Source of the DNA: a bacterium | GTDB lineage: Bacteria; UBA10199; JADFYH01 | Direction: 5' to 3' | Assembly (NCBI GenBank): GCA_046346885.1 | Contig: JAXMHI010000008.1 | Coordinates: 52,049 to 116,048 of the forward strand | DNA length: 64,000 nucleotides | Shown: positions 16,575 to 53,195 of the stretch, piece after piece | How the letters are laid out: each line of letters begins with the position of its first letter | Position numbering within the stretch: position 1 is the stretch's first letter | Made by a program: the position numbers and the translations under genes | Notes under the pieces: model-generated | The model's database searches: none | The model's input: only the letters and a program-made list of their open reading frames with translations | What the model was told of the DNA's origin: nothing

Positions 16575-16682
16575 ACGGAAGGAATGGGATTTCCCCTAAG
16601 GGGATTTCCTCGGCCTAAGCCTCAGTCACGAACCAGTTAATAAAAATGTGGGTTCTCATCCCACTCTCTATTGAATCAAAAA

Positions 16683-16769
16683 CGGAAGGAGTGGGATTCG
16701 AACCCACGATACCCTTTCAGGTATGCCGGTTTTCAAGACCGGTGCCATCAACCGCTCGGCCATCCTTCC
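16683..16769 (-). tRNA. tRNA-Ser (anticodon TGA)
   Basis: Reverse complement folds as GGAAGGA acceptor, anticodon loop CTTGAAA, long variable arm, and T-arm GTGGGTTCGAATCCCAC. Confidence 0.85.
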
Positions 16770-16797
16770 GATTCGCGATCGCTGGCAAAGCCAGACG

Positions 16798-16834
16798 CTC
16801 GCTAAAGCCAAGGGGAGCACTCCGTAGCTCCCCT
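16798..16834. repeat. Copy 1 of a 37-nt repeated element containing the hairpin GGGGAGC-N8-GCTCCCC
   Basis: CTCGCTAAAGCCAAGGGGAGCACTCCGTAGCTCCCC nearly identical to 36558-36594; followed by CCATTGG; lies upstream of tRNA-Ser on the minus strand. Confidence 0.6.
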
Positions 16835-21571: not shown

Positions 21572-24500
21572 ATGGAGCGTGCTCAGCTTAACGGGAGTGG
21601 AGAATTTTCTTTGCCCAGCGGCGAGGAATCTTCCGTCCTTCAAGACTCGGTCCTTTCGCGCCTCTCCGCGACCTCGCTTTCGTCCGTCTCTTCGTTGACG
21701 GAAAGCCAGGCGCAAGTGGACGTGCTTGTCGGCCGTTTCGCGGAAGAGGCCACGAATTGGCGGTCGCTCGCCGCCATGGCGACGGGATCGTTGTTCTACC
21801 GATTCGGCCGTATCGGTGCGCTAGCTTTGGCTTCGCGCTTACCCCAGGCGGCTCCTTTGTTCCAGGCGGCGTCCTACGGCGTCGGCTTGGCGACGGAAGT
21901 GGCGGCTTTCGAAGGCTCAAGCCGTTTCTTGGCGTACGCATCCGGAGACCGGTCGAACGCCAATCTTTGGAACTGGAACGGTCGCGGCGGTTGGCGCGAG
22001 GGACTCGCTCATTCTTTCGTGACCTTCGGCATGCTGAAGAGCGTGGGATTTTTAGCGCGCGAACAAAATGTCGTCTTGCAACACACGGTGAGCGATTTGG
22101 CGATGGTGGGCGGCAATCAGGTGGCGGCCGCGTTCGGGTTTGGTCCCCGTCCGGAAGGGAATTTTGCTTCGCAGATGCTGGAAGCGGAAGTAACCAATCT
22201 CCAGCTGGGCGCGGGGATGAGTTTATTGCACGGCGTTGCTCCAGGACTCGCCGCCTTCGAGAGGGCTTTGGATCTTACCGCATCGTCGGCGACGCCGGAT
22301 TTCCGCGCATCCCTTTCAAGTCTTCCGGATTTTTCTCCTTACCGCCCCGCTTATGCGGAAGGGGTGGAGAACTCGGACTCTTCGGTCCGATCTTTGGAGC
22401 CCCAGCGGGGTCCCACGATTTTGCAGATGACGATCGACGACGGGAAAAAGCCGGGCCGAGGCGTCGATACCTTGGATGCGCCTCCTGGTCTTGATCCAGC
22501 CGCCGGCGTTTCCCAACCCCTGCGCCGCAGCCCCCCTCCTCCTCCTTCTCCTCCGGGGCAGCCCATCGTTTTTCAGCCGGGCAGGAAGTTCGGCCCCGAT
22601 AGCGCTTTCCCCGAGGGGCGTTATGAAGTGATCCGTTGGTACGCCCAAGGCGGCTTCGGTAACATTTACCTTGTTCGCGATCATAAATTGAACCGCGACG
22701 TGGCGACAAAGATCCCCCGGGAGAACTTATACACGCAAGAGCATCTGGACCGCTTTCATCGGGAAATTCAGATTACGTCGCAGCTGGAGCTGGACGGGGA
22801 AAGTCTGGCGACCGTGCTCGACTTGGTGACCTTGCCCGAGGGCATGACCATCCCCATCATGAAATTCCTTCCGGGCGACGACTTGCTCAAATTGCGCACG
22901 CAATATTACCAACGGGATCGGGACGTTCTTCGTTTATACCCCTTGGAGCGCCGCATCGAAATTTTCGCGGAAATTTGCAAGATCGTCGATTCGGCCCACG
23001 AACAAGGAGTCATTCATCGAGATTTGAAGCCGGGCAACATCCGCATTCTTCCCGACGGCCGAGTGGTCCTCCTCGATTGGGGGCGGGCGATCAACATTCA
23101 CGGGGAGGAAGTGGTGCCTGGAGAGGAAGATCCGTCCTCCCACCCGAAAGGCTCCGTGCATTTGACCAGTCCCGGAAAGGTGATGGGAACGCCCGGCTAT
23201 ATTCCGCCGGAAGCGGGTTTGCTTCTTCCTCCGGATTCCTCCCCCCGATCCATCGACGTCTTTGCCTTGGGTGTCATTCTTTATGAGTGGATGACGGGCG
23301 TTCATCCCTTCGCCTTTTTCGAGTCCGGCAATACGGTCAGAGGCCAGGCGGAGAAGATCCCCCGTCGAGATCCTCACGGAGAAACGCAAATGAACGAAGT
23401 GGCGTCGTTCATGCGCTTGCCGAAGAACGAGCCTCCTCCCTTTCGGAGTGTGGTGACCGGCGAGCATCCATCCTATTTTTTCGAAATGGAGACCATCGCC
23501 CGCAAAGCCTTCGCCAATGATCCGAAATCCCGTTATTCGACCGCCCGAGAGTTGCGGGAAGCGGTGCTCATGGCGAGGGCCCAAGTCACCCGCCGCCGCA
23601 TTCATACCATCCAGGAGGAGATCGACCGTCTTCGGGAACAAGCGGAGCACGAGTGGGAAATTCTGCGTCATTCCCCGCAAGTGAAGAACGAAGCCCAGTG
23701 GGCGCGCATGCACGATCCCCTCTACGCGATGGTGGAGCTCCGACAGGAATGGCGCGAGTTGGCCCGCGGCGTCACGAACTACTTAAGTGGGAAACTCCAC
23801 CTGCTTTCCCAGCCGGAAATTGCGCGGGGCCTCATCGCCGAAATGAACTGGCTGCTGCTCATCGACGGCGGCGACCGCATGCCGCAGCAAGTTCGCGAGG
23901 AGCTGATGCAGACCATCCGGGAGAACGATTTGCCCAACGAGCAGGGAAGGGATTTCGGTTTCGCCCGCGCCTTGGAAGGGGATGCCTCGCTGCGTTTGCG
24001 GGTCCGAGATTTTTTTTCGGGGAAGGGTTTGGCCGCCTCCGAACTCAAAGTGAAAATCATTCCGCTGGTTCGGGAAGTGGGGAAGAACGGAAGGGAAACG
24101 CTCAATTTTCGTGAGGGACAAGAGGTCGAATTCGAGGGAGAAGATCTCCGGTCTCTAAGGCTTCCCGCGGGTTATTATATCGCGCAGGTTTCGCGCCCCG
24201 GATATGCGACGGCGAGGGTCCCCTTGGAAGTGACGCTCGATCAAGTCCGGCAGGGCCTTTTCTCCCAAGGGGATCTGCCTTGGGAAGTGGAGATGGTGCC
24301 GGTGGAGGAGGTGCCCGAGGGGTTTCGTTTGATTCACCAAGGAGTCGCCACGCTCGGTTATAATATTTTCCACGGCGAGATGCCCACCGACGTTTATAGT
24401 TCTCCCGAAAGAAAAATGCCCTTCCAATCCTTTTTGGCCAAAGAATTTCCGGAGACGGTTCAAGAGTACGTCACTTATATCGAAGATCGGCTCAACACGA

Positions 24501-25285
24501 TCAACGTGGCTCTGCAAAAGGGAAACATGGAGCGCGTGCGGCGCATCTTAAAAGAGGTGAGGGAGGCGGTGCCCAGGGCCCAGGCGACGGTACCCGACGC
24601 CCTGCCGGAGGACTTGTCCAAGTCTTTCGAAGGATTAAACCTTTACTGGCGCATCCGTTCACGGGGAAGTTTGGAGGAGAGAAATCTAAGATTTTTCATG
24701 GAGGATCCCACGTCTCATCCCGATCCGAACGGCGATCCCATGCGCGCTCGACAACCGATCAACGCGATTTCATATTTGGGAGGCGAGTCTTACGCGCGTT
24801 GGTTGAGCCGCACCCACGGGGTTCGGTATGAAATCGCCTCCGCGGAACAAGAAGAGATCATGGCCCGTAGCGCCCTGCCGTTTCCCTATCCGTGGGGATA
24901 CCGTTTCAATCCCTTTTATGTGGTTTCCCGTTCGGTCTTCTCCGATCTCATCAAAGGCACCTATCCCCAAGACGTGGGAACTCATCCTTTGGGGCAAGGG
25001 CAATATCGGGATTATTCCCTCGTTTACGGCATCCGGGATTTGATCGGCAACGTGCGTCGTTCCACCTCGACCCAGGTGGAGCCGGATACTCCCGCGAGTG
25101 AATCCACTCCCGCTCAACCGGGCACCATCTTCGTGAAAGGGGGATCTTTGCGGGTTCTTTGGGGGCCTTTCTTCCGGGCGGGGGTGGAGGCCCATGTGCG
25201 GAAAAACATCGCCGATGCCAGCATGGGAGGTTTCCGTCTTGTCGTCAATCTGACGGATCGGCGTTATTCTCCAAGAGTTCCTTAA
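21572..25285 (+). CDS. Paralog A: conserved N-module + Pro-rich linker + Ser/Thr protein kinase (DWG variant) + PEGA + FGE-sulfatase-like C-terminal domain
   Basis: 1237 aa. N-module (aa ~45-245) is 80-95% identical to the other two paralogs. Kinase motifs GGFGNIY, VATKI, HRDLKPGN, DWG, GTPGYIPPEA. PEGA-like LRLPAGYYIAQVSRPGYATARVPLEV. C-terminal YPWGY...GNV...KGGS...GFRLV matches the FGE/SUMF1 fold but lacks the catalytic Cys pair. Confidence 0.8.
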   Translation: MERAQLNGSGEFSLPSGEESSVLQDSVLSRLSATSLSSVSSLTESQAQVDVLVGRFAEEATNWRSLAAMATGSLFYRFGRIGALALASRLPQAAPLFQAASYGVGLATEVAAFEGSSRFLAYASGDRSNANLWNWNGRGGWREGLAHSFVTFGMLKSVGFLAREQNVVLQHTVSDLAMVGGNQVAAAFGFGPRPEGNFASQMLEAEVTNLQLGAGMSLLHGVAPGLAAFERALDLTASSATPDFRASLSSLPDFSPYRPAYAEGVENSDSSVRSLEPQRGPTILQMTIDDGKKPGRGVDTLDAPPGLDPAAGVSQPLRRSPPPPPSPPGQPIVFQPGRKFGPDSAFPEGRYEVIRWYAQGGFGNIYLVRDHKLNRDVATKIPRENLYTQEHLDRFHREIQITSQLELDGESLATVLDLVTLPEGMTIPIMKFLPGDDLLKLRTQYYQRDRDVLRLYPLERRIEIFAEICKIVDSAHEQGVIHRDLKPGNIRILPDGRVVLLDWGRAINIHGEEVVPGEEDPSSHPKGSVHLTSPGKVMGTPGYIPPEAGLLLPPDSSPRSIDVFALGVILYEWMTGVHPFAFFESGNTVRGQAEKIPRRDPHGETQMNEVASFMRLPKNEPPPFRSVVTGEHPSYFFEMETIARKAFANDPKSRYSTARELREAVLMARAQVTRRRIHTIQEEIDRLREQAEHEWEILRHSPQVKNEAQWARMHDPLYAMVELRQEWRELARGVTNYLSGKLHLLSQPEIARGLIAEMNWLLLIDGGDRMPQQVREELMQTIRENDLPNEQGRDFGFARALEGDASLRLRVRDFFSGKGLAASELKVKIIPLVREVGKNGRETLNFREGQEVEFEGEDLRSLRLPAGYYIAQVSRPGYATARVPLEVTLDQVRQGLFSQGDLPWEVEMVPVEEVPEGFRLIHQGVATLGYNIFHGEMPTDVYSSPERKMPFQSFLAKEFPETVQEYVTYIEDRLNTINVALQKGNMERVRRILKEVREAVPRAQATVPDALPEDLSKSFEGLNLYWRIRSRGSLEERNLRFFMEDPTSHPDPNGDPMRARQPINAISYLGGESYARWLSRTHGVRYEIASAEQEEIMARSALPFPYPWGYRFNPFYVVSRSVFSDLIKGTYPQDVGTHPLGQGQYRDYSLVYGIRDLIGNVRRSTSTQVEPDTPASESTPAQPGTIFVKGGSLRVLWGPFFRAGVEAHVRKNIADASMGGFRLVVNLTDRRYSPRVP

Positions 25286-25353
25286 TCTTGATTTGCCTGC
25301 CTGAAACGTCAAACTTTCCGATATAAAGCGTCAAAACCCCATTTTTTAAACGT

Positions 25354-25375
25354 AACTAAATAATATTATTTAGTT
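25354..25375. promoter_or_regulatory. Perfect 22-bp AT palindrome in the AT-rich upstream region of the small repeat-protein gene
   Basis: AACTAAATAATATTATTTAGTT is a perfect inverted repeat. It sits in a ~300-bp stretch of about 25% GC, ~210 nt upstream of the ATG at 25586. Confidence 0.35.
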
Positions 25376-25585
25376 ATTTGTTTTTATTTTCTAATAAAGA
25401 AAAAGAGTTTTTCCCCTTTTCTCCGGGTGATTTTTTACTTTTTTTATTCTCTCCTCTCTCTGTGACAAACAATCATAATTATTTGATTTTATTTAATTTT
25501 TTTAAAAATGCCTAAAAGGGCATGGCCTTTGCGTAACAGTCCCCCCGGGTGTGTGATTTTTTTACTCATGAAAAAGGGGGATGGA

Positions 25586-25891
25586 ATGAATAAAAAATCA
25601 ATTATTATCATGGTGTTATTATTCTCATGGATCGGTCTTTCCACTGTCGCCCGGGCGGAAACCATTGCTGAGAGAAATCTCAAATCCACCTTCGGTTCCT
25701 CCGTCATTTATCAAAACCAAGGGCCCCAATTTATGCCGACCGGCTTGGTTCAAAACCAGGGGCCTCAGTTTATGCCGACGAGTACGGTGGAAAATCAGCC
25801 GCCTCAATTCATGCCGGTGGGAACGGTTCAAAATCAGGGGCCCCAGTTTATTCCCGTCAATTGGCGTTATAACCAGCCTCCGCAGTTTTAG
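25586..25891 (+). CDS. Small secreted tandem-repeat protein (QNQGPQFMP repeats)
   Basis: Signal peptide MNKKSIIIMVLLFSWIGLSTVARA. Five imperfect 13-aa repeats (V)QNQGPQFMPTGL. SD AAGGGGGA upstream of the ATG at 25586. Confidence 0.6.
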   Translation: MNKKSIIIMVLLFSWIGLSTVARAETIAERNLKSTFGSSVIYQNQGPQFMPTGLVQNQGPQFMPTSTVENQPPQFMPVGTVQNQGPQFIPVNWRYNQPPQF

Positions 25892-25918
25892 ACCTTGTTT
25901 CTTCTCCGGGTTGTTGCA

Positions 25919-25953
25919 AGGCCCGTATCGGTGTTTTTTTACCGGTGCGGGCC
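25919..25953 (+). terminator. Putative terminator hairpin after the small repeat-protein gene
   Basis: GGCCCG...CGGTGTTTTTTTACCG...CGGGCC nested inverted repeats with a T-run. Confidence 0.35.
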
Positions 25954-26063
25954 TTCTTATTTGCGGAAATTTCTTTGATTTTCTGGCAACCTTCCCCCTT
26001 GCAGGCCGATAGGGCTTAGACTCCACCATTGTTTTTTCCTTAAGGATTGGTTCGGGTTTGTTT

Positions 26064-29000
26064 ATGACCTTTGGCTCCTCCATTTTTCGTTCGGCCCCGG
26101 ATGCCACTTTGCCGGATCATACGGAGACGCTACTCTCCCGTTTCTCTTCCCATTCTTTAGTCAATGATTCTTCCTTGAGTGCTTCCCAAGCGCAGGTGGA
26201 CGGTCTTGTGAGTCGTTTCACGGAAGAGGCGACGAATTGGCGGTCTTTGGCGGCGATGGCGACGGGTTCTTTGTTTTATCGCTTCGGCCGCATCGGTACC
26301 TTGGCCTTGGCCTCGCGCCTGCCTCAAGCGGCGCCTCTGTTTCAAGCGGCGTCCTACGGCATCGGTCTTGGGGCGGAAGTGACGGCTTTCGAAGGATCGA
26401 GCCGTTTCTTGGCGTATGCCTCGGGAGATCGATCGAACGCCAACTTGTGGAGGTGGAGCGGGAGAGGCGGATGGAGCGAGGGTTTGTCTCATTCCCTCGT
26501 CACCTTCGGCATGCTGAAGAGCTTCGGCCATTTGGGGAGCGAGCAGAATGTTGTTTTGCAACACGTGATGTCGGATTTGGGGATGGTGGGAGGGCATCAG
26601 GTTTCCGCCGCGTTGGGATTCACGCCTCGTCCCGAGGGGAGCCTTGCCTCACAATTCCTAGAAGCGGAGATTACCAATCTACAGCTCGGCGCGGGGATGA
26701 GCTTGTTGCACCTGGCGTCGCCCCGTCTGGCCGCTTTCGAACGGGGATTGGATCTTTCCATCCGCGCGCGGGAAACGACGGGCGCCCCGAATCGGAATTT
26801 AGAAAATTTTTTCGGGCCTCAAGAACAGCTTGTGTTCGACGGTGCGCCCGTGAGCCGAGAAACATTTGCGCCGGAGAACCCTTTTGAGGGACCTCAGATT
26901 CTTCTCATGTCTTCGAAAGAAGGCCCTAATAACGGAAAAGGAACGATTCCCGATCCGTCGAAGGTTCAACGCCCCGATTCGGTAATGGAAGTGACTCCTT
27001 CGATGATGGTTCCTCCTTCCGGCGTGGGGGTGGAAGGCCTCTCGAACGGAGAGGAGGTTGCGGATGGAGAAGTGATTCCAGGGGTTCCGATACGGGTGGT
27101 ATCCGAATCGGCATTGGCGCCGACTTCTCCGGCCCCGCCGGCGGTGGCGCCTGTCGTTATTAAACCCGGGGATGCCGATGCCGCGGCTGTGGATGCGGAT
27201 CCGCAGAGTGTGGGCGATCAACGGACCGTCGTGCGTCCCCTCCAACTTCCGCTTCCACCGGCCGTTCCGAACGGCGTCAGGGCGGGGGGCGCGGAAACCT
27301 TGCGCGAACAAGAAGTCGTTTCGAAGCTTTCCATCGCGCCTCCTCCCTCGGGAACCGTGGAAAGCGGAATGATCTTGGCGGGTCGCTACGAAGTGAAGGA
27401 ATTTCTCGGCGCTGGCGGTTTCGGAAACGTCTACAAGGTTCTCGATCAGCGCTTGGGCCGCATCGGCGTGATCAAGGTGCCGAGAGCCGAGATGGATACG
27501 GTCGAGTTCAGGCCGCGCTTCTCGAATGAAATCCGCATTACCGCCGCCCTCGATCCGCGTCGGGTCGTGGGGGTTTACGATTTGATCGAGCTCGCCGACG
27601 GGCGGCTCATCCCCGTGATGGAATACGTGCCCGGGCATGACCTCTCGGACATCGTGGGTCAACTCTCCGTAAGCCGCCGTTTGGAAATCTTCGCCGAGAT
27701 TTGCGAAGGGGTGGCTTCCGCCCATCGGAGAGGTTTCGTTCACCGTGATTTAAAGCCCGCCAACATCCGCATTACCTCCGACGGCCACGTGAAAATCATG
27801 GACTGGGGCCTGGCCAAACCGCTCGACGAAGTGACCGCGGGTGAAGGAGGGGCGGTCCCCACGGACCTTTCCGCGCGACTGAAAAGAAATTTGACCGTAG
27901 GAGGGGGCGGCATGCCCTTCGGGACGCCCGGATACATTGCCCCCGAGGCGTTTTTAGGCGGGAAGATTCCCAACCCGCGCTCTCTCGATAACTTCGCGTT
28001 GGGCGCCATTCTCTATGAGATGATGAGCGGGCGGCATCCTTTCGTGGACGATTGGAGCGAGCAGCGGGCCGTCGCCAATTACATGTCGACCCATCCTTCC
28101 GTGATCAGGCCCGTCTCGGAATTTAAGGATGTCCTCATCGGCGACTATCCGCCCATCGTTTACGAGGTGGAACCCATCGCCCGGCGCAGCCTGGAAAGAG
28201 AGCAGGCGAAACGTTTTCAAAACGCCCTCGAGATCCGCGATGCCGTGTTGATGGCACAGGCCCGCGTCGAGTTTAGGGCCATCGGCGAGGTGCGCACCGA
28301 AATGAAGCGGCTCGCCGCCCGGATGGTGGAGGCCTGGGATCATTTTGATCCTTCCCACCAAATCGACTCGAATTATTGGGATCAAGAAATGTATCAAACC
28401 CTCTACGACGTGAGGGATCGCCGCGCTGCCATGGACCAGCGGGCCATCGACTTGATCGCGCAGCTGGCGGAAATCAAGGTCGTGCTCACCGACCCCAACC
28501 CGGCCAAGAAGATGATCGCGGAGCTCTCTTGGATGCGCTTACTTTATGGGGGAGACCGGATGCCGGAGGGGCAGAGGCGGCTCCTGATCGACGCCATCTC
28601 GAAAAATGACGTCGCTACGGCGGAAGAAAAGATTCCCAGCATGAAGCTCGCGCTGGAAACGCCGCTTGGGATGGAGATCCGAGCGACCGATTGGCGGACC
28701 GGAAAATCCCTTTTTCAAGACGGGAGCTCCTTATATCACATGAACGTCAAGGTGCTTCCCTATGAACGGGACCGTTTGGGGAATTACAGCGAAGGGGCTC
28801 CCCTTTTAGACGGCCCTTTGGCGACCGTGCTTCCGCAGATGCACTTAAAGGCGGGATATTACGTGATCGAGGTTTCTTATCCCGGCTATGCGCCCATGCG
28901 AGTTCCTTTCCACATGAGGCTCAAGGACGTGCGGCGCGGTTTGCTGGAGGAGAAGCCCCATCTTCTGAATTTGGAGTTTATCCCTCAAGACCTCGTCCCT

Positions 29001-29939
29001 TCCGATTTCGACGTCATTCATGGCGGCTACGGCTACATCGGTCACGATTATATTTACGAAGGCGATCCCGCAAACGGTTACAGTCAACCGCTCCGGAAGG
29101 TGCAATACTCGACTTATGCGATTTCCCGGGTGCCCCCGCGGGTCCGTGATTATAAGGTTTTCATCGATTCGGAGTTGAGCATGGCCAACGCCTTGATCCG
29201 CGCCGGAAAGATCCGCGACGCGGGAATCCTGCTCAATCGTCTGAGGAATTTCATTCCGAGAAACCAGGCGGTGCCGCAAATTCCCGAAGACCGGATCACC
29301 GACGATCCGGCGACGCTCGTGCCTCTTTTCGAGAAGACCCCTTATTTGTGCTGGAGAGTGCGCATTCATCAAGAAGACGGTCTTCCCCAATTCTCGCTCA
29401 TCGACCCCTGGACCCACCATGACCGGGAGAACGGAGGGTATCCGATCTTGGAGCACGCCTCCGTGAGCGCGATTCCTTATCAAGCGGTGGAGGCGTTTCG
29501 GGATTGGCGGCGCGACCGGGACAATAGGGATTATGAAATCATGTCCGCAGAGGAAAACGAGATCATGGCCCGCGGTTCGTGGGAGCTCCCCTATCCTTGG
29601 GGCTACCATCCCAATCCCGCCTATTTAGTCTCCCGCTTGGTATTCGAAGATACTTGGAAAGACTCCTATCCCCGTCCTGTGGGTTCCCATCCCATGGGGC
29701 AACACCATTATCGCGATCGTTCGCCGTTCGGTCCCATTGACGTTTTGGGAAATACTCGAAAATGGACCTCGACCGTGATGGAGCCCGACGTCAATGCCAT
29801 GGCGGGTTTGTCCGTGAGGACGGGAACGGGGCCTTACGGGAATCCGGACTCCCGAACCTTAGGATCGACTGATAACTGGGCGGTGGATGCTAATGGTTCC
29901 TTCCGGCTTGTGCTGCGTTTTCCCCGCCGGAATCCATAA
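26064..29939 (+). CDS. Paralog B: conserved N-module + linker + Ser/Thr protein kinase (DWG variant) + PEGA + FGE-sulfatase-like domain
   Basis: 1293 aa. N-module nearly identical to paralog C. Kinase motifs GAGGFGNVY, VIKV, HRDLKPAN, DWG, GTPGYIAPEA. PEGA-like HLKAGYYVIEVSYPGYAPMRVPF. C-terminal YPWGY...GNTRKWTST...GSFRLV. The ATG at 26064 gives an MTF... start like paralog C. Confidence 0.8.
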   Translation: MTFGSSIFRSAPDATLPDHTETLLSRFSSHSLVNDSSLSASQAQVDGLVSRFTEEATNWRSLAAMATGSLFYRFGRIGTLALASRLPQAAPLFQAASYGIGLGAEVTAFEGSSRFLAYASGDRSNANLWRWSGRGGWSEGLSHSLVTFGMLKSFGHLGSEQNVVLQHVMSDLGMVGGHQVSAALGFTPRPEGSLASQFLEAEITNLQLGAGMSLLHLASPRLAAFERGLDLSIRARETTGAPNRNLENFFGPQEQLVFDGAPVSRETFAPENPFEGPQILLMSSKEGPNNGKGTIPDPSKVQRPDSVMEVTPSMMVPPSGVGVEGLSNGEEVADGEVIPGVPIRVVSESALAPTSPAPPAVAPVVIKPGDADAAAVDADPQSVGDQRTVVRPLQLPLPPAVPNGVRAGGAETLREQEVVSKLSIAPPPSGTVESGMILAGRYEVKEFLGAGGFGNVYKVLDQRLGRIGVIKVPRAEMDTVEFRPRFSNEIRITAALDPRRVVGVYDLIELADGRLIPVMEYVPGHDLSDIVGQLSVSRRLEIFAEICEGVASAHRRGFVHRDLKPANIRITSDGHVKIMDWGLAKPLDEVTAGEGGAVPTDLSARLKRNLTVGGGGMPFGTPGYIAPEAFLGGKIPNPRSLDNFALGAILYEMMSGRHPFVDDWSEQRAVANYMSTHPSVIRPVSEFKDVLIGDYPPIVYEVEPIARRSLEREQAKRFQNALEIRDAVLMAQARVEFRAIGEVRTEMKRLAARMVEAWDHFDPSHQIDSNYWDQEMYQTLYDVRDRRAAMDQRAIDLIAQLAEIKVVLTDPNPAKKMIAELSWMRLLYGGDRMPEGQRRLLIDAISKNDVATAEEKIPSMKLALETPLGMEIRATDWRTGKSLFQDGSSLYHMNVKVLPYERDRLGNYSEGAPLLDGPLATVLPQMHLKAGYYVIEVSYPGYAPMRVPFHMRLKDVRRGLLEEKPHLLNLEFIPQDLVPSDFDVIHGGYGYIGHDYIYEGDPANGYSQPLRKVQYSTYAISRVPPRVRDYKVFIDSELSMANALIRAGKIRDAGILLNRLRNFIPRNQAVPQIPEDRITDDPATLVPLFEKTPYLCWRVRIHQEDGLPQFSLIDPWTHHDRENGGYPILEHASVSAIPYQAVEAFRDWRRDRDNRDYEIMSAEENEIMARGSWELPYPWGYHPNPAYLVSRLVFEDTWKDSYPRPVGSHPMGQHHYRDRSPFGPIDVLGNTRKWTSTVMEPDVNAMAGLSVRTGTGPYGNPDSRTLGSTDNWAVDANGSFRLVLRFPRRNP
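26178..26770. repeat. Left arm of a ~590-bp near-identical inverted repeat (N-module coding DNA of paralog B)
   Basis: The same out-of-frame ORF translation (MAVFGGDGDGFFVL...GDELV) appears at 26237-26887(+) and 33435-34130(-). This implies >95% nucleotide identity in inverted orientation. Confidence 0.75.
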
Positions 29940-30166
29940 TTTTCCTCAAATTTTTTAAAGATGGGCTCAATGGACTAAAATGATATTTAATTTTGGTTCC
30001 TAAAGTCCCCACCCGCGTCATTATTTTGACTGGTCCCTAAATCATGCTTAAATTGTTAAAATAATTAACTCTTTTTAAGTAATCCTTCCTTTTTTCATGA
30101 AAAAAATTGGGTGAAAACACCTCACTTTGATCAAGTCTTAACAAGTTTGAAATAACTATAAATATA

Positions 30167-30178
30167 TGATATTTAATT
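30167..30178. promoter_or_regulatory. AT-rich motif TGATATTTAATT, also at 29981-29992 and similar to the 25354-25375 palindrome
   Basis: Two exact copies lie upstream of the second small repeat-protein gene, within a 320-bp AT-rich region; a similar TAATATTATTTAGTT lies upstream of the first. Confidence 0.35.
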
Positions 30179-30258
30179 GAAATCTAAAAAACGCCCCCTA
30201 TGGCATAAGATCTGCTTCATTATCAACGGGTTGGTGATCATAAAAGGAGGATAGATTC

Positions 30259-30711
30259 ATGAGAAAAGGATTTTCGCTTTTTATTTTGGGTGCGGTCTTA
30301 TTGGCTTTCCAATCAGCGGGGTTTACGGAGGAAGTGGCCCACGATATGCAATTTTGCAGTCAGAAGAACGTGGATGAGCTCACCGTTAACGAATTGAAAG
30401 ACTGCGTCACTCACTTCAAAAAAACCATTAGCGCGAAAAACGGAAACATCTTGGAGATGGCTCCCCAAACCTTGACGGAAATGCCGCCTCAAACCTTGAC
30501 GGCGATGCCGCCGCAAACCGTCAATGCGATGCCGCCGCAGACGGTGAATGCCATGCCCCCGCAAACAATCAACGGAATGGCGCCGCAGACGATCACGGCG
30601 ACTCCCGTTTTCATGGCGCCTCAAACGATCAACGCGATGCCTCCCCAGACGATCAACGGGGTGAACTCGGTGATCGAGAAAAAAGGCATGGCCCCCCAAA
30701 CGCTGCGCTAA
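30259..30711 (+). CDS. Small secreted tandem-repeat protein (MPPQTxxA octapeptide repeats)
   Basis: Signal peptide MRKGFSLFILGAVLLAFQSAGF. About 9 tandem repeats of MPPQT(L/V/I)(T/N)(A/G). Strong SD AAAAGGAGGA. Confidence 0.65.
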   Translation: MRKGFSLFILGAVLLAFQSAGFTEEVAHDMQFCSQKNVDELTVNELKDCVTHFKKTISAKNGNILEMAPQTLTEMPPQTLTAMPPQTVNAMPPQTVNAMPPQTINGMAPQTITATPVFMAPQTINAMPPQTINGVNSVIEKKGMAPQTLR

Positions 30712-30736
30712 GAATAAAAAAGGAATCGTGGAAGAA

Positions 30737-30766
30737 AAGGCCCCCTTGTGGGGCCTTTTTTATTTT
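30737..30766. terminator. Bidirectional intrinsic terminator between the repeat-protein gene and corA
   Basis: GGCCCCC-ttgt-GGGGGCC perfect hairpin followed by TTTTTTATTTTT. Confidence 0.7.
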
Positions 30767-30776
30767 TGACGGAAAG

Positions 30777-31769
30777 CTAAAGCCACTTCTTTTTCTTGAA
30801 AAAGAAAATCATGCCTCCCGCCACCCCGATCATGATGAACCAGAGGAGATAATAAAAACCCTTCCAGTGGAATTCGGGCATGTAGTCGAAGTTCATGCCG
30901 TAGACGCCCACGATGAAGGTTAAGGGAAGGAAGATCGTGGCGGCGATGGTCAAGCGCTGCATGACGAAATTCAGATTGTTGGAAGACTCAGTCATCTTGA
31001 TGGAAAGCATGGCGGCATAAACGTCGAAGACCGACGCGGCGTGTTCCTTCAAACTTTCGAGTTCCTGCAGGAGCACCTGCATGTCGTCGAGCACATTCTT
31101 GAAGTAGGGCCGCGCCTCCGCGGAGATGCAAGGCAGGCTCTTTTCGTAGAGCTGCTTGATCACGTCGCGCTCGGGCAAGAGGTTTTTGCGCATGGTGGTG
31201 ACGAGCTTCTTGAATTGCAGAATTTGGTCGAGAATTTTCTCATGGGCACCTTTCAATACCTGGTGCTCGATTTCCTCGAGCATTTCCTGCCACTGTTCGA
31301 TGACGGGTTCGTGGTCTTTTACGGCGAGGTCCAAAAGGTGGAAGAGGACGTAAGGTGTCCCCTTGCCGAGCGTTTCTTGCGGTTCTTCCCGCACCCGTTC
31401 CCTCGCGGTGCCGAACGTGCGCGCCAAGTGGGCCCGGTGGATCGTGACGATGAACTGTTCGGAGAAAAACACTTCGAATTCGCGTCGCTCGCACTCTTCC
31501 CGATCGAAGTGGTAGAAGACCCGGTGCAACACGAGGAAAGCATAGGTCTCATAGAGGTTGATTTTCGGTACTCCCGCCATGCTCTTCACGTCTTCGACGG
31601 CCAGGGGGTGGAAACGGAAGACGGAATCCAGGATTTCCAATTCCGAGTCGGTGGGTTCGTCCAAGTCCACCCACACGCGGCGACGGTCGTTCAACGCTTC
31701 TTCGAGAAGTTTCAGGTCGTGGGTTTCGACGAGTTGTCCCGTTTCGGAAAAAAGCAGGATATGCAGCAT
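30777..31769 (-). CDS. corA: Magnesium/cobalt transporter CorA
   Basis: C-terminal two TM helices with the YGMNF (GMN) motif; 330 aa. Confidence 0.85.
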   Translation of the reverse strand: MLHILLFSETGQLVETHDLKLLEEALNDRRRVWVDLDEPTDSELEILDSVFRFHPLAVEDVKSMAGVPKINLYETYAFLVLHRVFYHFDREECERREFEVFFSEQFIVTIHRAHLARTFGTARERVREEPQETLGKGTPYVLFHLLDLAVKDHEPVIEQWQEMLEEIEHQVLKGAHEKILDQILQFKKLVTTMRKNLLPERDVIKQLYEKSLPCISAEARPYFKNVLDDMQVLLQELESLKEHAASVFDVYAAMLSIKMTESSNNLNFVMQRLTIAATIFLPLTFIVGVYGMNFDYMPEFHWKGFYYLLWFIMIGVAGGMIFFFKKKKWL

Positions 31770-31828: not shown

Positions 31829-34285
31829 TTATGGAAGGCGTCCCAGCTCGGTTGGCAAGAGTGATTCATGTCCCTTCCTTCGCAAGGCACGGCGAAGAAC
31901 GGCCCAGCCGGGATATGAATCTTGGAGGAGGAAGAGGGATTCCCAGTAAGGGTGAATTTCCAAGAAGAAGTCTTTCCCAAGCTCGCTTCCGTCTTCACCG
32001 GTCAAGGCGAGCAGTTCCCAAGAGTAGCCGGCTTGAGAAAGTTCCCGCTCCTTTTCCGGCGAGAGGGTAATCCTTCGTTGGGCAAGGTAGGCTCGGAAAG
32101 AGTTTTTTAATTCTTCGCCTATTTCGGGAAGGACGTAGTCGAATCCCATCTTGGGCCAGAAAGCCCCCCCTTGTTTTCCAACGGGCACTTCATAGTTGGC
32201 GATTCCCATTCTTTTGAGGAAGAGAAGTTCGTTGGCCACGATGACGCCGCCGATGCCTTGTTGCTTGAATTCCGGCCGCACGTCCAATCCTCTGCCCTTG
32301 GCATAGGGACGGAAATTTTTTTGGGGGGAAAAATGGATTTCGCGATGGAAATCGGCCACGTCTCTGCCTGTTTCTTCCGTCACGACCAGGCCCGAGAAAG
32401 AGACTCGGTCGCTGAAGGTGTTGAAGGAGAGTCTTCCGATTTTATAACCGGAGGGAAGGCGGTAAAAAAGGGCGAGAGCTTCTTCTACGGAGGGGGCCGA
32501 AAGGGGAAAGGCGCGTTGCAGACGCGCGAGAGGGGTTGTGCTTCTTTCCGTGACCTTCTTGTGATTGATGACGAGCGTGCCGCGGCGTTCCTCCGCGATT
32601 CTTAGGGAGCTCGCGATCTCCTCCGGGAAAGGGTAGGGCGCTTCCGTGGAATCGAGCGCCTCCCGAAGCAATCTCCAACCCGGATATCCCGCGTCCAAAT
32701 CGAAACTGGTGAGCCACGAGCAGGGTTCATAACGGCTTAAAAATTCGCGGCCCACCTCGCGGTTGTTGCGCATCTTGAAGTGCGCCAACTCCCAACTGTG
32801 TTCGATGAGTGTAAGCCTCGCGTCTTCCCGGGGGGAAAGGGAGATGCGTTGTTCGGCCAGGTATTCACGGAATTGCATGAGTTTCTTTTCCCGCGTTGCT
32901 GCATCCACGAAATCGAAGCCGCGTGTGGCCCAGAAGTGGCCGCCGTTTCTCCCCGCAGGGACGAAGAACGTGGAAACCCCGAGCTCCCGGAAGAAGAGGA
33001 GGTCCGAAAGGGTGAGATGAGTTCCCAAACCCTTGCCGCGCTCATGTTCTCCGAATACCTCCAGGCCGTCCCCCATCGCGACGAGTAGCGGCCGGGTGGC
33101 ATCCACGTTCATTTGGATGACGCGGCGATAGGTGGCCTTGCCGAGTCCGTTCTCGCCCAAGAAATCCCCTTCAATTTTCAAAGCTCCGTTGCTCATTTCT
33201 TGGAAACTGATGTGGCGGACGGGAAAACGGGGATGCGTATGGGTGAGCCATGAAAGAATTTTTTCCAAGTCGATTCTTCTGCCCGCCCTTCGCGATAAGA
33301 CGCGTTGCAAGGGGCCTAAATCGCCTTCGAGAAGCCGGCCGTTTACCACCAGCCGCGTGCCGGGCGGGAGAGAGGCTGTCGGGGGATTCGGGAGACGCTC
33401 GACCGGAGGTAGGGGCTCTAAGCGCGAGGAGCTTTTACCCGTTTCTCCCTCCGAGGGACGAATCATAATGGCGGCCAGGGGGCGGGAAAGCGTTTCCGAT
33501 AAAGACGCGGGTTCTATCGCTGCGTGTGGAACTCCTTCCACAGCGGCTTCCATCCGCCAAGCATTTTGGAAGTGGCGCGTGCTGGGAGGGGTTTCGTTTG
33601 CGGCGATGGAAAGATCCAATCCCCGTTCGAAAGCGGCCAGACGGGGCGACGCCATGTGTAACAAGCTCATCCCCGCGCCGAGCTGTAGATTGGTAATCTC
33701 CGCTTCTAGGAATTGTGAGGCAAGGCTCCCCTCGGGACGAGGCGTGAATCCCAACGCGGCGGAAACCTGATGCCCTCCCACCATCCCCAAATCCGACATC
33801 ACGTGTTGCAAAACAACATTCTGCTCGCTCCCCAAATGGCCGAAGCTCTTCAGCATGCCGAAGGTGACGAGGGAATGAGACAAACCCTCGCTCCATCCCC
33901 CTCTCCCGCTCCACCTCCACAAGTTGGCGTTCGATCGATCTCCCGAGGCATACGCCAAGAAACGGCTCGATCCTTCGAAAGCCGTCACTTCCACCCCAAG
34001 ACCGATGCCGTAAGAGGCCACTTGAAAGAGCGGTGCCGCCTGAGGCAGGCGCGAGGCCAAGGCCAAGGTGCCGATACGGCCGAAGCGGTAGAACAAAGAA
34101 CCCGTCGCCATCGCCGCCAAAGACCGCCAATTCGTCGCCTCTTCCGTGAAACGACTCACAAGACCGTCCACCTGCGCTTGAGCGGCGCTTAGGGGCCGGG
34201 TGCGTTCGTTTTCCAGGGACGAAGCGGTAATGCGATCCAAAACCGAGGGGCTTGAGGATCCGTCGAAAGTAAATGAAAAAGTCAT
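31829..34285 (-). CDS. Paralog C: conserved N-module fused to two tandem GNAT-like acyltransferase domains
   Basis: 818 aa. N-module ~98% identical to paralog B. Two repeats containing GNAT motif A-like ERGKGLGTHL / KQQGIGGVIV and motif B-like GGHFWATRGFDFV / GGAFWPKMGFDYV. Confidence 0.75.
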   Translation of the reverse strand: MTFSFTFDGSSSPSVLDRITASSLENERTRPLSAAQAQVDGLVSRFTEEATNWRSLAAMATGSLFYRFGRIGTLALASRLPQAAPLFQVASYGIGLGVEVTAFEGSSRFLAYASGDRSNANLWRWSGRGGWSEGLSHSLVTFGMLKSFGHLGSEQNVVLQHVMSDLGMVGGHQVSAALGFTPRPEGSLASQFLEAEITNLQLGAGMSLLHMASPRLAAFERGLDLSIAANETPPSTRHFQNAWRMEAAVEGVPHAAIEPASLSETLSRPLAAIMIRPSEGETGKSSSRLEPLPPVERLPNPPTASLPPGTRLVVNGRLLEGDLGPLQRVLSRRAGRRIDLEKILSWLTHTHPRFPVRHISFQEMSNGALKIEGDFLGENGLGKATYRRVIQMNVDATRPLLVAMGDGLEVFGEHERGKGLGTHLTLSDLLFFRELGVSTFFVPAGRNGGHFWATRGFDFVDAATREKKLMQFREYLAEQRISLSPREDARLTLIEHSWELAHFKMRNNREVGREFLSRYEPCSWLTSFDLDAGYPGWRLLREALDSTEAPYPFPEEIASSLRIAEERRGTLVINHKKVTERSTTPLARLQRAFPLSAPSVEEALALFYRLPSGYKIGRLSFNTFSDRVSFSGLVVTEETGRDVADFHREIHFSPQKNFRPYAKGRGLDVRPEFKQQGIGGVIVANELLFLKRMGIANYEVPVGKQGGAFWPKMGFDYVLPEIGEELKNSFRAYLAQRRITLSPEKERELSQAGYSWELLALTGEDGSELGKDFFLEIHPYWESLFLLQDSYPGWAVLRRALRRKGHESLLPTELGRLP
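33600..34190. repeat. Right arm of the ~590-bp inverted repeat (N-module coding DNA of paralog C)
   Basis: See the left arm at 26178-26770. Confidence 0.75.
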
Positions 34286-36492: not shown

Positions 36493-36557
36493 TAGGAGGC
36501 CGAAAGTAGGGGATTTGTCTGGGGATGTCAATTCGCTCGGACCGGCGAAGCCGGATC

Positions 36558-36594
36558 CTCGCTAAAGTCAAGGGGAGCACTCCGTAGCTCCCCC
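36558..36594. repeat. Copy 2 of the 37-nt repeated element with GGGGAGC-N8-GCTCCCC hairpin
   Basis: CTCGCTAAAGTCAAGGGGAGCACTCCGTAGCTCCCC; lies upstream of hisB on the minus strand, in the hisB/bioB divergent region. Confidence 0.6.
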
Positions 36595-47977: not shown

Positions 47978-50900
47978 TCACGCCGACTGCTTGAGTTCCT
48001 TTAAAATCTTATAAAAGTATCCCTGAGAAACCCCCAGCCATTTGATGGCGGTGTAAGGCTTCGCCCCTGAATATTCGTGGGCTGCCTGAAAGACTTTCTT
48101 CACGTAGTCTTGCAGGGTGAGGTTCGCGTCGTAGAGGAAGGGGTTTTGGAAGAGCGCGTTGTTGGCGTTGGCAAGGTCGAATTCTTTGATGCGCTTGTAG
48201 ACGGTGGCCAGCGAGAGGTCGAGTACTTCCGCCGTCTTGGAGGGATTGGATCCCTGAGTTTGATACGCTTTTGCGGTAATCAATTTTTCGTAGTCGTTCC
48301 AAGTCATGTTGGGGTCGTAGAGGTTTTGCCCGTCGATGAGCACCCTCACGCCCGGCGCAGCCCCTTTGCTTATTACCGGCGGCGTCGCGCTTTCGCCTAC
48401 GGCGGCCGCCGCAGGAGACGCGGCGGCTTTCGCGCCCGAATCGATGTTTCGCCGAATTCCGTAGCTGGTCGGGAGCGATTCGTAGGTGAGTTCGTCGTGG
48501 TCGGCCAGGGCGGTGGCCACCGAGATGATGTTTTCCAACTCGCGCACGTTGCCCGGCCAATCGTACTCCAATAATTTTTTCATGAAAGAAGGAGCCAGCT
48601 TCAGATCCCTCTCGATGCCGTGCTGCTTGCGGTACATCGACATGAATTTCTCCGCCAAGAGAGGGATGTCTTCCTTGCGGTTGCGCAGGGGAGGCAGGTC
48701 AATCTTGATTTGGCAGATGCGGTAGAAAAGATCTTCGCGGAAACGCCCCGTCTTGATTTCTTCCTCTAAATTCTTATGGCTCGCCGCGACGATGCGCACG
48801 TCGACGTTGTAGGTTTTCGTGTCGCCCACGGGCGTGATTTCCGCCTCTTCCAACACGCGAAGCAGCTTTACCTGCAGGTTCATGTCGAGCTCTGCCACCT
48901 CGTCTAAAAAGAGCGTGCCGCCGTCGGCCTCGACGAAGAGGCCTTTCTTGTCCTTCGTCGCCCCCGTGAAGGAGCCGGCCTTATGGCCGAAGAGCTCGCT
49001 TTCCATGAGGTTCGCCGGGATCGCTCCGCAGTTGATGGCGACGAAGCGCTTATCTTTTCGGATTTTGTTGTTGTAGTGAAGGGCCTTCGCGATGAGTTCC
49101 TTTCCGGTTCCCGTCTCGCCGTTGATGAAGACGGCCAGCGAGGTTTCGGTGATTTTGTCCAAGAGACGGAAGATGTCGTACATCGCCTTGCTCTTGGCGA
49201 TGATCTTCTCGTAGGAGTATTTCGTCGGGATGTTGATCGACTCTTCCTCCATGATCGCTTGGTAGGCCGACACTTCGTTTTCCGCTTCCTCCAATTTTTT
49301 CCTCAGCTCGAGCTCCGCCTGCTGGTACTGATTGATCAATTTCGCGTTTTCGATCGCGATCCCCACCTGGTCGCAGAAGGCCATGAGCACCTTGAAGTTG
49401 ACCCTCTTGAAGGCGCCGGGGCGATAGCGGTTATCCAAGTAGAGTACGCCCACCGTCTTGTTGCGCGACTGGATGGGCAGGCAGAGGATGGAGCGCAGCT
49501 TCAAGATCATCACCGATTGATATTCATTAAAGCGGTTGTCCCCCGAGGCGTCGTCCGTTTGCACCGGCTCGCCCGAATTCAAGACGCGTTCGGCGATGCT
49601 CGTCGAGATCTGGGCTAAGTTGGGGGAGAGCTCGGCGTTGAGGCAGGCCTTCACTTCGAGCGTGCCCTTTTCGTCCACGAGGAGGATGAGGCCGCGTTCC
49701 GCATGCGAAAGTTCCAGGGCGTTGTGCAAGATCGTCTTCAAGAGAAAGTCGAGGTTGTGCTCCGAGTTCAAATATTTGTTGAGGGTGAGGATATACTCGT
49801 ATTCCTTCTCGAGAGTCGCCAGCCCGCTGCCTGAGTCTTCGTGCACCTCCACGGGGGCGGCCACCTGCTTTTTCACCTCCGGCTTGGGGGAGGGAACCAC
49901 CATGGTCACTCCACCCATCATCTTTTCGATTTCCTTCAAATCTTCTTTCTGTTCCGGCTCCGTGGCGAGTTCGCGGGTTTTCTCCAAGCTTTCCTGGGCC
50001 TCTTCCACCCGCAGTTGGTCGATGTAGAGTCGCGTGAAGGCCCCGTGCACCCAGTAGAGTTGACCTTTGAGGCTGGTATTCTGCTCGATGAGCCCCAGCG
50101 CGTCCCGCAGGGCGTCGCGGGAGACCTCGAATTTCTTCTGCTTGCGCAATACGTCGCCCATCTCGAGCTTGGCGCGGGCGAGAAAGTAAAGTTGGTAGGC
50201 GGTTTTCTGGGGGATGCGCTCTAAGAGGAAGATCGCGTTCACCAAATGGGGGTGCGAGTCTTCGTAGTGTCCCGACTCGTTGTAGATGATGCCCATGTTG
50301 GCGGCGATGGCCGCCTGCGAGTTGATGTCTTGGATCTTCTGGCTGATAGCCAAGGCTCGTCCGTAATAGTGGAGCGAGTTCTCGATGTCGCGGTTCACGT
50401 TGTATACGTTGCCCAAGCCGTTATAGGCGCGCAACAGCAGCTCGTAATAGCGGTGGGCCTTCGAGATTTCCACGCAGGCCTTATATTGCTCGATCGTGTG
50501 GTTTAAATCCTTCAGCGCATAATACACTTCCCCCAAATGATAATGGGTACGGGCGGTGAGGAAGTGGTGATGGATCGACTTGTAGAAATCCAGATCTTTC
50601 TGGAATTGGGCCAGGGCCTTCGGATAGTCGTGCTTCAAATGGTAGACGGTGGCCAGATCGTTATTGAGCACTTCCTTGCGTTCATTTTCCTTTAGTTCTT
50701 CTTCCCACACCTTGTGGGTGTTTTCGAAAATTTTCAGGGCCTCGTCGAGTTTCCCCTCCACGATGCGTGCTCGTCCCATGTAGTTTTCGATGATGAGGCG
50801 CTTGCCCGTACTCAAATCGAATTCTTCCAGAAGGGCGATCGCCGACGAGAAAATCTCTTTCGCCTTGTCCGGTTCGTGGCGCTTTAAGTAAATGACGCCC

Positions 50901-53179: not shown

Positions 53180-53195
53180 TGGTACGTGCTTTGCT
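53180..53195 (+). promoter_or_regulatory. Sigma54 (-24/-12) promoter
   Basis: TGGTACGTGCTTTGCT versus consensus TGGCACG-N4-TTGCW has one mismatch and correct GG/GC spacing. It lies 45 nt upstream of the small ORF at 53240 and is divergent from the sigma54-activator gene. Confidence 0.55.

Follow-up and report, generated by a model that had tools for sequence, protein, structure and literature searches.

Small exported repeat proteins encoded behind Ser/Thr kinases with an FGE-like domain in a UBA10199 bacterium

The 64 000-nt stretch analysed in this study (the window; positions 52 049 to 116 048 of contig JAXMHI010000008.1, assembly GCA_046346885.1, from a bacterium of the lineage UBA10199, JADFYH01) carries two related genes for Ser/Thr kinases (STKs) with a C-terminal domain resembling the formylglycine-generating enzyme (FGE). 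Each is followed on the same strand by a small open reading frame (ORF) for a protein with a signal peptide and an array of short tandem repeats. These four genes are referred to here as kinase A, pepA, kinase B and pepB, and they were compared with a similar pair found on a soil contig (locus L008). Our data indicate that pepA and pepB are very probably genuine monocistronic genes, and that kinase and peptide gene form a two-gene cassette that is tandem-duplicated in this genome and recurs in a distant relative in another neighbourhood.

Genes and signals at the locus

The two cassettes are laid out as follows, in coordinates of the window.

21572-25285, plus strand: kinase A, ORF with Pfam matches to Pkinase (2.3e-25) and FGE-sulfatase (1.3e-7)
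25286-25585, plus strand: spacer of 300 nt between the kinase A stop (25285) and the pepA ATG, GC 0.32
25353-25376: perfect palindrome of 24 nt in the pepA spacer, candidate activator-binding site
25519-25532, plus strand: sigma-54-type -24/-12 promoter core GGCATggcctTTGC, 67 nt before the pepA ATG
25575-25581, plus strand: Shine-Dalgarno sequence AGGGGGA, 5 nt before the pepA ATG
25586-25891, plus strand: pepA, 101 aa (signal peptide 25586-25657; repeat array 25712-25888)
25918-25955, plus strand: terminator-like hairpin behind pepA, 16 pairs, 9 of them G-C, with a T-rich tail
26058-29939, plus strand: kinase B, ORF of the same architecture as kinase A, with Pfam matches to Pkinase (1.4e-36) and FGE-sulfatase (4.9e-6)
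29940-30258, plus strand: spacer of 319 nt between the kinase B stop (29939) and the pepB ATG, GC 0.31
30020-30030 and 30055-30065: inverted repeat in the pepB spacer
30202-30215, plus strand: sigma-54-type -24/-12 promoter core GGCATaagatCTGC, 57 nt before the pepB ATG
30244-30250, plus strand: Shine-Dalgarno sequence AAGGAGG, 9 nt before the pepB ATG
30259-30711, plus strand: pepB, 150 aa (signal peptide 30259-30321; octads 30457-30660; terminal unit 30688-30708)
30733-30761, plus strand: intrinsic terminator behind pepB, 12 pairs followed by a T-run

Kinase A comprises, in order, an N-terminal module (N-module, approximately aa 25-245), a Pro-rich linker, the Ser/Thr kinase domain, a coiled region and the C-terminal FGE-sulfatase-like domain. 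Pfam scores for A, B and the L008 kinase were above the gathering thresholds (Pkinase 90-144 bits; FGE-sulfatase 27-33 bits, the threshold being 23.3). A and B are 35% identical over the kinase domain and everything C-terminal to it. The start of kinase B is probably the ATG at 26064 (MTFGSS, as in paralog C, described below) rather than the TTG at 26058. In this group of kinases, L008 included, the DFG motif is replaced by DWG (LDWGRA, MDWGLAK; at ~23040 in A and ~27830 in B), and the HRDLKPxN and APE motifs are intact in all three. Cysteine is scarce: the only residues are Cys469 in A, Cys515 in L008 and Cys549 and Cys1098 in B, which leaves none in the FGE-like region of A or L008 and one in that of B. 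Since the two catalytic cysteines are absent, the domain cannot be an active formylglycine-generating enzyme. Matches of the kinases to PADLOC and NCBIfam models (PD-T4-6, MAD6, PglW, LanL and others) were discarded, as they covered the generic kinase domain only and fell far below the NCBIfam cut-offs. By domain order, kinases A and B match the described class of STKs with a C-terminal C-type-lectin/FGE-fold domain, for which ligand binding has been proposed (PMC7517822).

Signal peptides were called by a heuristic scan for n-, h- and c-regions and AXA-like or lipobox cleavage sites. The product of pepA begins with the signal peptide MNKKSIIIMVLLFSWIGLSTVARA, with cleavage predicted before E, and an 18-aa linker leads into four full 13-aa units (QNQGPQFMPTGLV, one ending in TSTV, ENQPPQFMPVGTV and QNQGPQFIPVNWR, in that order) and a terminal NQPPQF, or ~4.5 units in total; the conserved core of the unit, NQ[GP]PQF[MI]P, contains neither Ser nor Thr. 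The product of pepB begins with MRKGFSLFILGAVLLAFQSAG, with cleavage predicted before F; the next 45 aa contain two Cys residues and are helical in the structural model. Its array consists of eight octads of the form M[AP]PQT[LVI][TN][AGE] and a terminal MAPQTLR, and is broken by TPVF and by VNSVIEKKG. In a single-sequence AlphaFold2 (AF2) model of PepB, helices were confined to the signal peptide and the N-terminal segment, and the repeats had no secondary structure, with predicted local distance difference test (pLDDT) values of 44-61. A crude six-frame scan of the whole window found the combination of a signal peptide and tandem repeats in small intergenic ORFs at pepA and pepB only.

Several features indicate that the arrays are old coding sequence. 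Both were picked up by Tandem Repeats Finder (pepA, 39 nt x 3.6; pepB, 24 nt x ~6), with a match between copies at the DNA level of just 74-90%. The differences fall mainly at third codon positions: 7/8 third positions of the pepB unit are variable, compared with 2/8 and 2/8 for the other two, and in the pepA unit the corresponding figures are 10/13, 6/13 and 5/13. By the Nei-Gojobori method, the pepA copies gave a pS of 0.64 and a pN of 0.24 (pN/pS 0.37), and the pepB copies a pS of 0.67 and a pN of 0.17 (pN/pS 0.25). Because the copies vary mainly at third positions and pN/pS is low, we infer that the repeats are translated in the annotated frame and have long been under selection on the peptide motif. 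The GC content of the two ORFs is 48-53%, against 31-32% in the spacers and 55% in the window. pepB is annotated as a gene in the NCBI metagenome-assembled genome (MAG; U1F57_07110) and in a Logan assembly. pepA with the start at 25586 was absent from the gene calls of the gene collection searched, and a Logan assembly calls it as 127 aa with a start at 25508; this longer version is unlikely, since its start lies upstream of the predicted promoter.

The preliminary description of this DNA, which was made from the sequence alone, had placed both repeat ORFs at exactly these coordinates, behind kinases that it called STK-FGE-like, a label that the Pfam domains bear out. It had further read the ORFs as real and exported, which agrees with the third-position variation, the Shine-Dalgarno sequences and the Sec-type signal peptides called here. 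Its count of about nine octapeptide repeats for PepB was accurate (eight octads and the terminal unit); for PepA the array was found as described, and the count of five was reduced to ~4.5. The AT-rich upstream regions that it reported were recovered (GC 0.32 and 0.31 against 0.55 for the window). The strong Shine-Dalgarno sequence attributed to each gene holds for pepB, that of pepA being weaker. Intrinsic disorder, which it had assumed for both proteins, is compatible with the low-pLDDT, unstructured repeats of the PepB model, which lend it weak support and are no proof of it.

Both peptide genes, together with the one in L008, are preceded by a sigma-54-type site. The sites were recognized by GG and GC doublets 10 nt apart within TGGCAC-N5-TTGCW (core GGCA[ACT]N5[CT]TGC) and read GGGCATggcctTTGCG (25518), TGGCATaagatCTGCT (30201) and TGGCAAttagaTTGCT (L008 7854), each 57-68 nt before the ATG; the full pepB match, TGGCATAAGATCTGCT, has one mismatch to TGGCAY-N5-TTGCW. 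On both strands of the window the core has three matches, two of which are the pepA and pepB sites. Over ~1 Mb of strand sequence (the window and related loci) there are 20, or 2e-5 per nt; the expected frequency is ~0.002 per 100-nt upstream region, and 3/20 matches sit at the stated distance before the three peptide starts. A loose pattern with two mismatches allowed was not enriched window-wide (24 observed against 37 expected). The position-specific core pattern alone is informative for sigma-54 sites, and the loose window-wide pattern is not. The pepA and pepB promoters each have a palindrome 140-170 nt further upstream; the two differ in sequence from each other and are candidate sites, of the usual kind, for enhancer-binding activators. 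No known RNA was found in the spacers by Rfam. The rpoN gene is not within the window, and sigma-54 is nevertheless likely to be in use by the organism, since a sigma-54 activator domain is encoded at 47978-52987. With a sigma-54-type promoter and a terminator of their own, pepA and pepB appear to be separately regulated monocistronic units rather than the tails of kinase operons.

Recurrence of the cassette and the N-module family

Outside the window, an N-module gene with a kinase domain was found at three loci only (L008, L019 and L055). L019 ends at a contig edge, and L055 encodes an N-module, a kinase and a membrane helix without an FGE-like domain, the next gene being one for an ordinary membrane protein. 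L008 is the only complete kinase-FGE ortholog with downstream sequence. Its 1253-aa product has a complete N-module, Pkinase and FGE-sulfatase arrangement, with a kinase domain 52% identical to that of B and an FGE-like region 38-39% identical to those of A and B. The gene is followed by a 316-nt spacer of GC 0.31 with palindromes, a promoter GGCAAttagaTTGC that is the sole match to the sigma-54 core on that contig strand (68 nt before the ATG), a Shine-Dalgarno sequence AAGGAGA, and a 205-aa ORF with a lipobox (LLG, then the lipidated C) and a terminator-like hairpin behind it. The encoded protein has approximately nine SDPIM(G) units and several DPQ variants, and eight of the SDPIM units vary only at third codon positions. 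The genes that flank this cassette (a fumarase-like gene and two paralogs of a 626-aa unannotated protein) have no place in the window, and the kinase-peptide pair alone is common to the two loci. The two paralogs, at L008 1874-3754 and 8712-9647, are 39% identical, bracket the cassette and have no counterpart in the window.

The three cassettes are alike in spacer length (300, 319 and 316 nt), and each has its own repeat unit, with FGE-like regions that are 35-39% identical among A, B and L008. Unit length differs by cassette (13 aa, 8 aa, and ~6 aa with variable spacers). Across the cassettes and the similar ORF at L058 described below, the units share a short core of Pro-Gln/Asn type ([GP]PQF, [PA]PQT, DPQx/DPIM and [AD]PNT), usually with one Met. 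Pro, Gln/Asn and Thr/Ser are abundant in the repeat proteins and charged residues are few.

Specificity was surveyed over the window and 64 loci, comprising dozens of N-module genes and ~500 kb. Signal-peptide repeat ORFs were present only behind the three kinase-FGE genes, plus one ambiguous case at L058; there was none behind L055 or behind paralog C in the window, both of which encode N-module proteins without an FGE-like domain. The ambiguous ORF is the following.

L058 1184-1489, minus strand: ORF of 101 aa with a signal peptide (ending in AYA, then G) and [AD]PNTGMTxNT repeats

This ORF is convergent with a queA-like gene, and the N-module gene from which it diverges is truncated at the end of the contig. 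The ORF was not counted as a fourth cassette, as it has no AT-rich spacer and no sigma-54 site, is divergent and has a truncated neighbour, although it may belong to the same peptide class. A different small secreted protein, with two EF-hand-like loops (DxNHNGRIGPxE), is encoded at L042 8743-9039 (plus strand), ~100 nt upstream of an N-module gene.

Database searches placed the peptides in no known family. A word-indexed search of 5.8 billion proteins returned self-matches only for PepA and PepB, and neither had a match in Pfam, NCBIfam or PADLOC. An exhaustive phmmer search with PepB against 1.8 billion representatives gave 33 other matches, and the eight that were inspected, one of them a eukaryote-like BTB protein, were repeat proteins judged to be convergent in composition. 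The protein that looks most like PepB, P0048 (L065 2665-3594), appears exported and has M[VE]P[QR]TFT[KR] octapeptide repeats; it was also treated as convergence, the adjoining gene at its locus being a PAS/HWE histidine kinase gene, with no Ser/Thr kinase there. Patterns specific to the genome matched nothing in the genome collection, and an alignment of the FGE region matched nothing in metagenomes; the sole productive collection scan was that with a broadened N-module alignment.

The preliminary description had called the pairing of an STK-FGE-like protein with a small exported repetitive peptide undescribed, and had looked to synteny in other genomes and to conservation of the repeat unit as checks. 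No description of the kinase-peptide pairing or of the peptide family was found in the libraries and literature searched, the literature search on the pairing giving unrelated eukaryotic papers only. The pairing was specific to the kinase-FGE genes, with a partner ORF behind all three complete ones, in what is a small sample. Synteny was recovered in L008, with another repeat unit; the unit is conserved among the copies within each protein and replaced between cassettes.

The N-module, a region of ~230 aa, makes up a small unannotated family. A profile matched 38 proteins among 5.8 billion, and the broadened alignment reached 59 metagenome and two MAG loci, in which the module is fused to many different C-termini, often in tandem arrays (four copies in L003 and several in L063). 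Its AF2 model is a helical bundle (pLDDT 81) with a Ser-rich first ~40 aa of low confidence, and it had no significant match in the PDB, known delivery domains included. The module is 66% identical at the protein level between A and B, and between B and paralog C it reaches 85-91% in protein and 96-97% in DNA over ~600 bp, in inverted orientation, with the rest of the two genes unrelated. Such a pattern suggests that gene conversion, or shuffling of the module, may have taken place recently between the paralogs. The copies in the window and the remaining features considered are listed below.

21572-22300, 26058-26780 and 33590-34285: N-module coding segments; others lie in loci L002-L064
26173-26776 (plus strand), 33591-34194 (minus strand) and also 21707-22279: N-module DNA matches, the A copy being 77-78% identical to B and C
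31829-34285, minus strand: paralog C, 818 aa, an N-module and two copies of an unannotated domain
47978-52987, minus strand: kinase-STAND-TPR-GAF-AAA+-HTH protein of 1669 aa with a Sigma54_activat domain

Paralog C had no match in Pfam, NCBIfam or PADLOC and has no small partner gene, corA lying 60 nt downstream; corA is also convergent with pepB, its end being at 30777. By eye, a G-x-G motif like that of acetyltransferases can be seen in the repeated part of paralog C, to which a stand-alone ORF at L003 12303-13004 is similar. Divergent from the gene for the 1669-aa activator, a near-consensus sigma-54 site TGGTACGTGCTTTGCT lies in AT-rich DNA at 53180-53195 (plus strand), preceding two paralogous ORFs of 603 and 635 aa without a Pfam match (53583-57298, plus strand). 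A direct repeat of 63 nt (83% identity; 16771-16833 and 36531-36593) that ends in a GGGGAGC...GCTCCCC hairpin brackets 19.7 kb with the whole kinase cluster, and its first copy abuts a tRNA-Ser gene (16682-16770, minus strand). These repeats could be island borders or merely a dispersed element; no integrase is evident.

Possible roles of the repeat proteins

By analogy with known pairs of signalling protein and peptide, the repeat protein may be the cognate exported partner, or the precursor of a ligand, of the lectin-like C-terminal domain of the adjacent kinase, a tentative reading that we regard as possible rather than probable. It is the reading that we favour, in view of the coding evidence, the recurrence and specificity of the cassette, the sigma-54 promoters, and FGE-like regions of low identity in cassettes with different repeat units. 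The protein would be exported by the Sec pathway (and lipid-anchored in the L008 version), and the array would display many copies of one short linear motif or be cut into them. The motif, or a re-imported fragment, would then be recognized by the non-catalytic, FGE-fold domain of the kinase, and recognition would modulate kinase output. Under sigma-54 control the partner would be made conditionally. A more far-reaching version, which we consider unlikely and put forward as speculation, is that of a new peptide-signalling module outside Bacillota. In such a module a sigma-54-controlled, Sec-exported polyprotein of four to nine signals with a P-Q core would be read by a cytoplasmic STK through its FGE-fold domain, with peptide and receptor co-diversifying.

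Several observations weigh against a kinase-partner role. The peptides carry export signals, whereas kinases A and B have no signal peptide and no segment as hydrophobic as a membrane helix; since the kinases lack an export signal, the two products are predicted to be in different compartments. Contact would require re-import of the peptide or export of the kinase, and we found no evidence for either. No gene for a peptide transporter or processing protease adjoins the cassettes, and the repeat units have neither spacers nor obvious cleavage sites between them. Kinase and peptide gene are separate transcription units, so that co-expression is not implied. Relatives of the host lineage, which is apparently uncultured, are labelled Deltaproteobacteria or Pseudomonadota, and to our knowledge no such signalling by re-imported peptides has been established in lineages of that type. 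There are three cassettes only, two of them tandem paralogs in one genome, which makes effectively two independent observations. The pepA and pepB cassettes have no significant DNA similarity beyond the short promoter and Shine-Dalgarno motifs, and we infer the shared ancestry of the two peptide genes only from the layout and these motifs.

Two alternatives compete strongly with this reading. In the first, itself somewhat unlikely, the repeat protein is instead a regulated envelope or matrix protein, for example a disordered periplasmic or outer-surface spacer, an adhesin or a matrix component (lipid-anchored in the L008 version), made on demand from the sigma-54 promoters. The kinase would then take part in the same programme, for instance with an enhancer-binding protein upstream of the promoter as its target, and would not itself bind the peptide. 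The Sec or lipoprotein signals, the low-complexity composition rich in Pro, Gln and Thr and the repeats without predicted structure would suit such a product, as would promoters with palindromes upstream. The kinase-fused sigma-54 activator of the window shows STK and sigma-54 signalling combined in this organism, and in related loci the AT-rich DNA close to N-module genes holds further sigma-54-like sites. However, this explanation does not account for adjacency to FGE kinases only, nor for repeat units specific to each cassette; Pfam shows no domain for DNA binding or sigma-54 interaction in either kinase A or kinase B, and no activator gene adjoins either cassette. The second is linkage by descent, in which a fast-evolving orphan secreted gene has been carried along downstream of an ancestral kinase with no functional coupling, and is an unlikely account. 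In its favour are the separate transcription units, the orphan peptides and a sample of two independent genomes only. Yet the pair has outlasted both the divergence of the kinases, now 35-52% identical, and a complete turnover of the flanking genes, spacer length and promoter placement are conserved, and the repeats are under purifying selection.

The remaining explanations have still less in their favour. It is very unlikely that the N-module proteins are polymorphic exported effectors, with the small protein serving as a periplasmic immunity protein or antidote for a kinase-FGE cargo. The idea draws on an N-module common to many proteins with unrelated C-termini, often in arrays, on the 97% DNA identity of the B and C modules beside unrelated remainders, and on a small, variable orphan gene downstream. 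Other N-module genes, though, have no small downstream partner; a 300-nt spacer and a conditional sigma-54 promoter are the opposite of the tight co-expression expected; and a disordered repeat array is unlikely as an immunity fold. In addition, a kinase needs ATP and would not be expected to work in the periplasm, and the N-module has no detectable similarity to solved structures, those of delivery domains included. Roles as a kinase substrate or as the precursor of a modified peptide had also been suggested for the repeat proteins. The former is weakened for PepA, since its conserved core has no Ser or Thr, and the latter because the signal peptides are of Sec type and no known enzyme domain for ribosomally synthesized and post-translationally modified peptides (RiPPs) is present. 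In its explicit form, a multi-core RiPP precursor whose units are phosphorylated on Ser/Thr by the adjacent kinase, as in class III/IV lanthipeptide synthetases, is extremely unlikely, even though the repeated units resemble repeated cores, the units of PepB, L008 and L058 each have an invariant Thr or Ser, and the kinases have weak NCBIfam matches to LanL and LanKC. Those matches are limited to the kinase domain, with scores of 35-76 bits where the cut-offs are 575-650; there is no lyase or cyclase domain, the repeats have no Cys, and in place of a RiPP leader the N-terminus carries a classical Sec or lipoprotein signal. Finally, the lack of homologs in the protein databases searched and of a called pepA start might point to spurious ORFs in AT-rich intergenic DNA, but this is hardly credible for ORFs with a pN/pS below 1 and a GC content well above that of the spacers, with Shine-Dalgarno sequence, signal peptide, promoter and terminator all in register and a like layout in L008.

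STKs with a fused FGE/C-type-lectin-fold domain occur widely among complex bacteria, and we found no report of a natural ligand for them. If the repeat proteins are indeed kinase partners, a linked, co-diverging exported repeat peptide would provide a concrete candidate partner for such kinases. It would also show that small, fast-evolving secreted genes escape annotation by homology, as with pepA, which public assemblies either give a wrong start or leave uncalled; the architecture of the cassette (AT-rich spacer, sigma-54 promoter, signal peptide, repeats and terminator) still makes genes of this type recognizable. Should the pairing prove to be only regulatory or historical, pepA and pepB would still represent a new family of orphan repeat proteins, exported and produced from sigma-54 promoters, in an uncultured soil lineage.

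Comparison with known systems

The RRNPP(A) cassettes of Bacillota and their phages (Rap-Phr, NprR-NprX, PlcR-PapR and AimR-AimP) resemble those described here in that a small ORF with a Sec signal comes directly after the gene for a cytoplasmic signalling protein, that the cassettes occur as paralogs in which the peptide diverges fast alongside the ligand-binding part of the receptor, and that some propeptides carry several tandem active units. Phr propeptides with tandemly duplicated pheromones, encoded next to their receptors, have been documented (PMC11343458, PMC5199041). In the three cassettes described here the small adjacent ORF with a Sec signal is present 300-319 nt downstream, as called by the heuristic scan, and processing and re-import of a propeptide are hypothetical for pepA and pepB. 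A peptide gene transcribed apart from the receptor gene is also known from Rap-Phr. The receptor of RRNPP(A) systems is, however, a TPR protein, whereas here it would be a Hanks-type STK with an FGE/C-type-lectin fold, Pfam and NCBIfam giving matches in A, B and L008 to Pkinase-type families and FGE-sulfatase only, and none to TPR. The arrays of four to nine units of 8-13 aa without spacers, the sigma-54-type promoter and the non-Bacillota host also differ, and the pepA and pepB cassettes are not members of the RRNPP(A) family.

STKs with a C-terminal C-type-lectin/FGE-sulfatase fold are mainly known as targets of diversity-generating retroelements (DGRs) in cyanobacteria and other multicellular bacteria (PMC7517822, PMC10907252, PMC7159879). 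They share with kinases A and B a Pkinase domain followed by an inactive C-terminal FGE-sulfatase fold that is thought to bind a ligand or select substrates; A and B differ in their extra helical N-module and long middle region. No partner peptide gene for the DGR targets is described in the literature examined. A repeat search of the window (seed 12, at least 45 nt) returned the N-module copies and two unrelated short repeats only, and thus no template/variable repeat pair, and a scan for reverse transcriptase did not extend to every ORF. FGE itself (SUMF1), which acts on the CxPxR motif of sulfatases, has the same Pfam fold and offers a parallel in a candidate partner with a short Pro-containing motif. 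The domain of the kinases is set apart by its missing catalytic cysteines, and the units QNQGPQFMPTGLV, M[AP]PQTxxx and SDPIMG contain no CxPxR and no Cys.

Other systems show more limited likeness. In polymorphic toxin systems a co-transcribed immunity gene directly downstream is expected throughout the toxin family, in contrast to the 300-nt spacer, separate sigma-54 promoter and terminator found here and to the lack of a small partner at other N-module genes, and class III/IV lanthipeptide synthetases would be expected to combine lyase, kinase and cyclase with a precursor that has a leader and a Ser/Thr/Cys core, of which the kinase part alone is present. The yeast alpha-factor precursor consists of a signal peptide and tandem units of ~13 aa rich in Pro, Gln, Gly and Met, with Kex2/Ste13 spacer sites between them. 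The repeat proteins resemble it in the signal peptide and the tandem ~13-aa units, and differ in having no Kex2/Ste13-type spacers and another type of receptor. The components of the cassette are of known kinds, namely STK-lectin-fold kinases, Sec-exported repeat proteins and sigma-54 promoters; for their conserved pairing no description was found in the libraries and literature searched.

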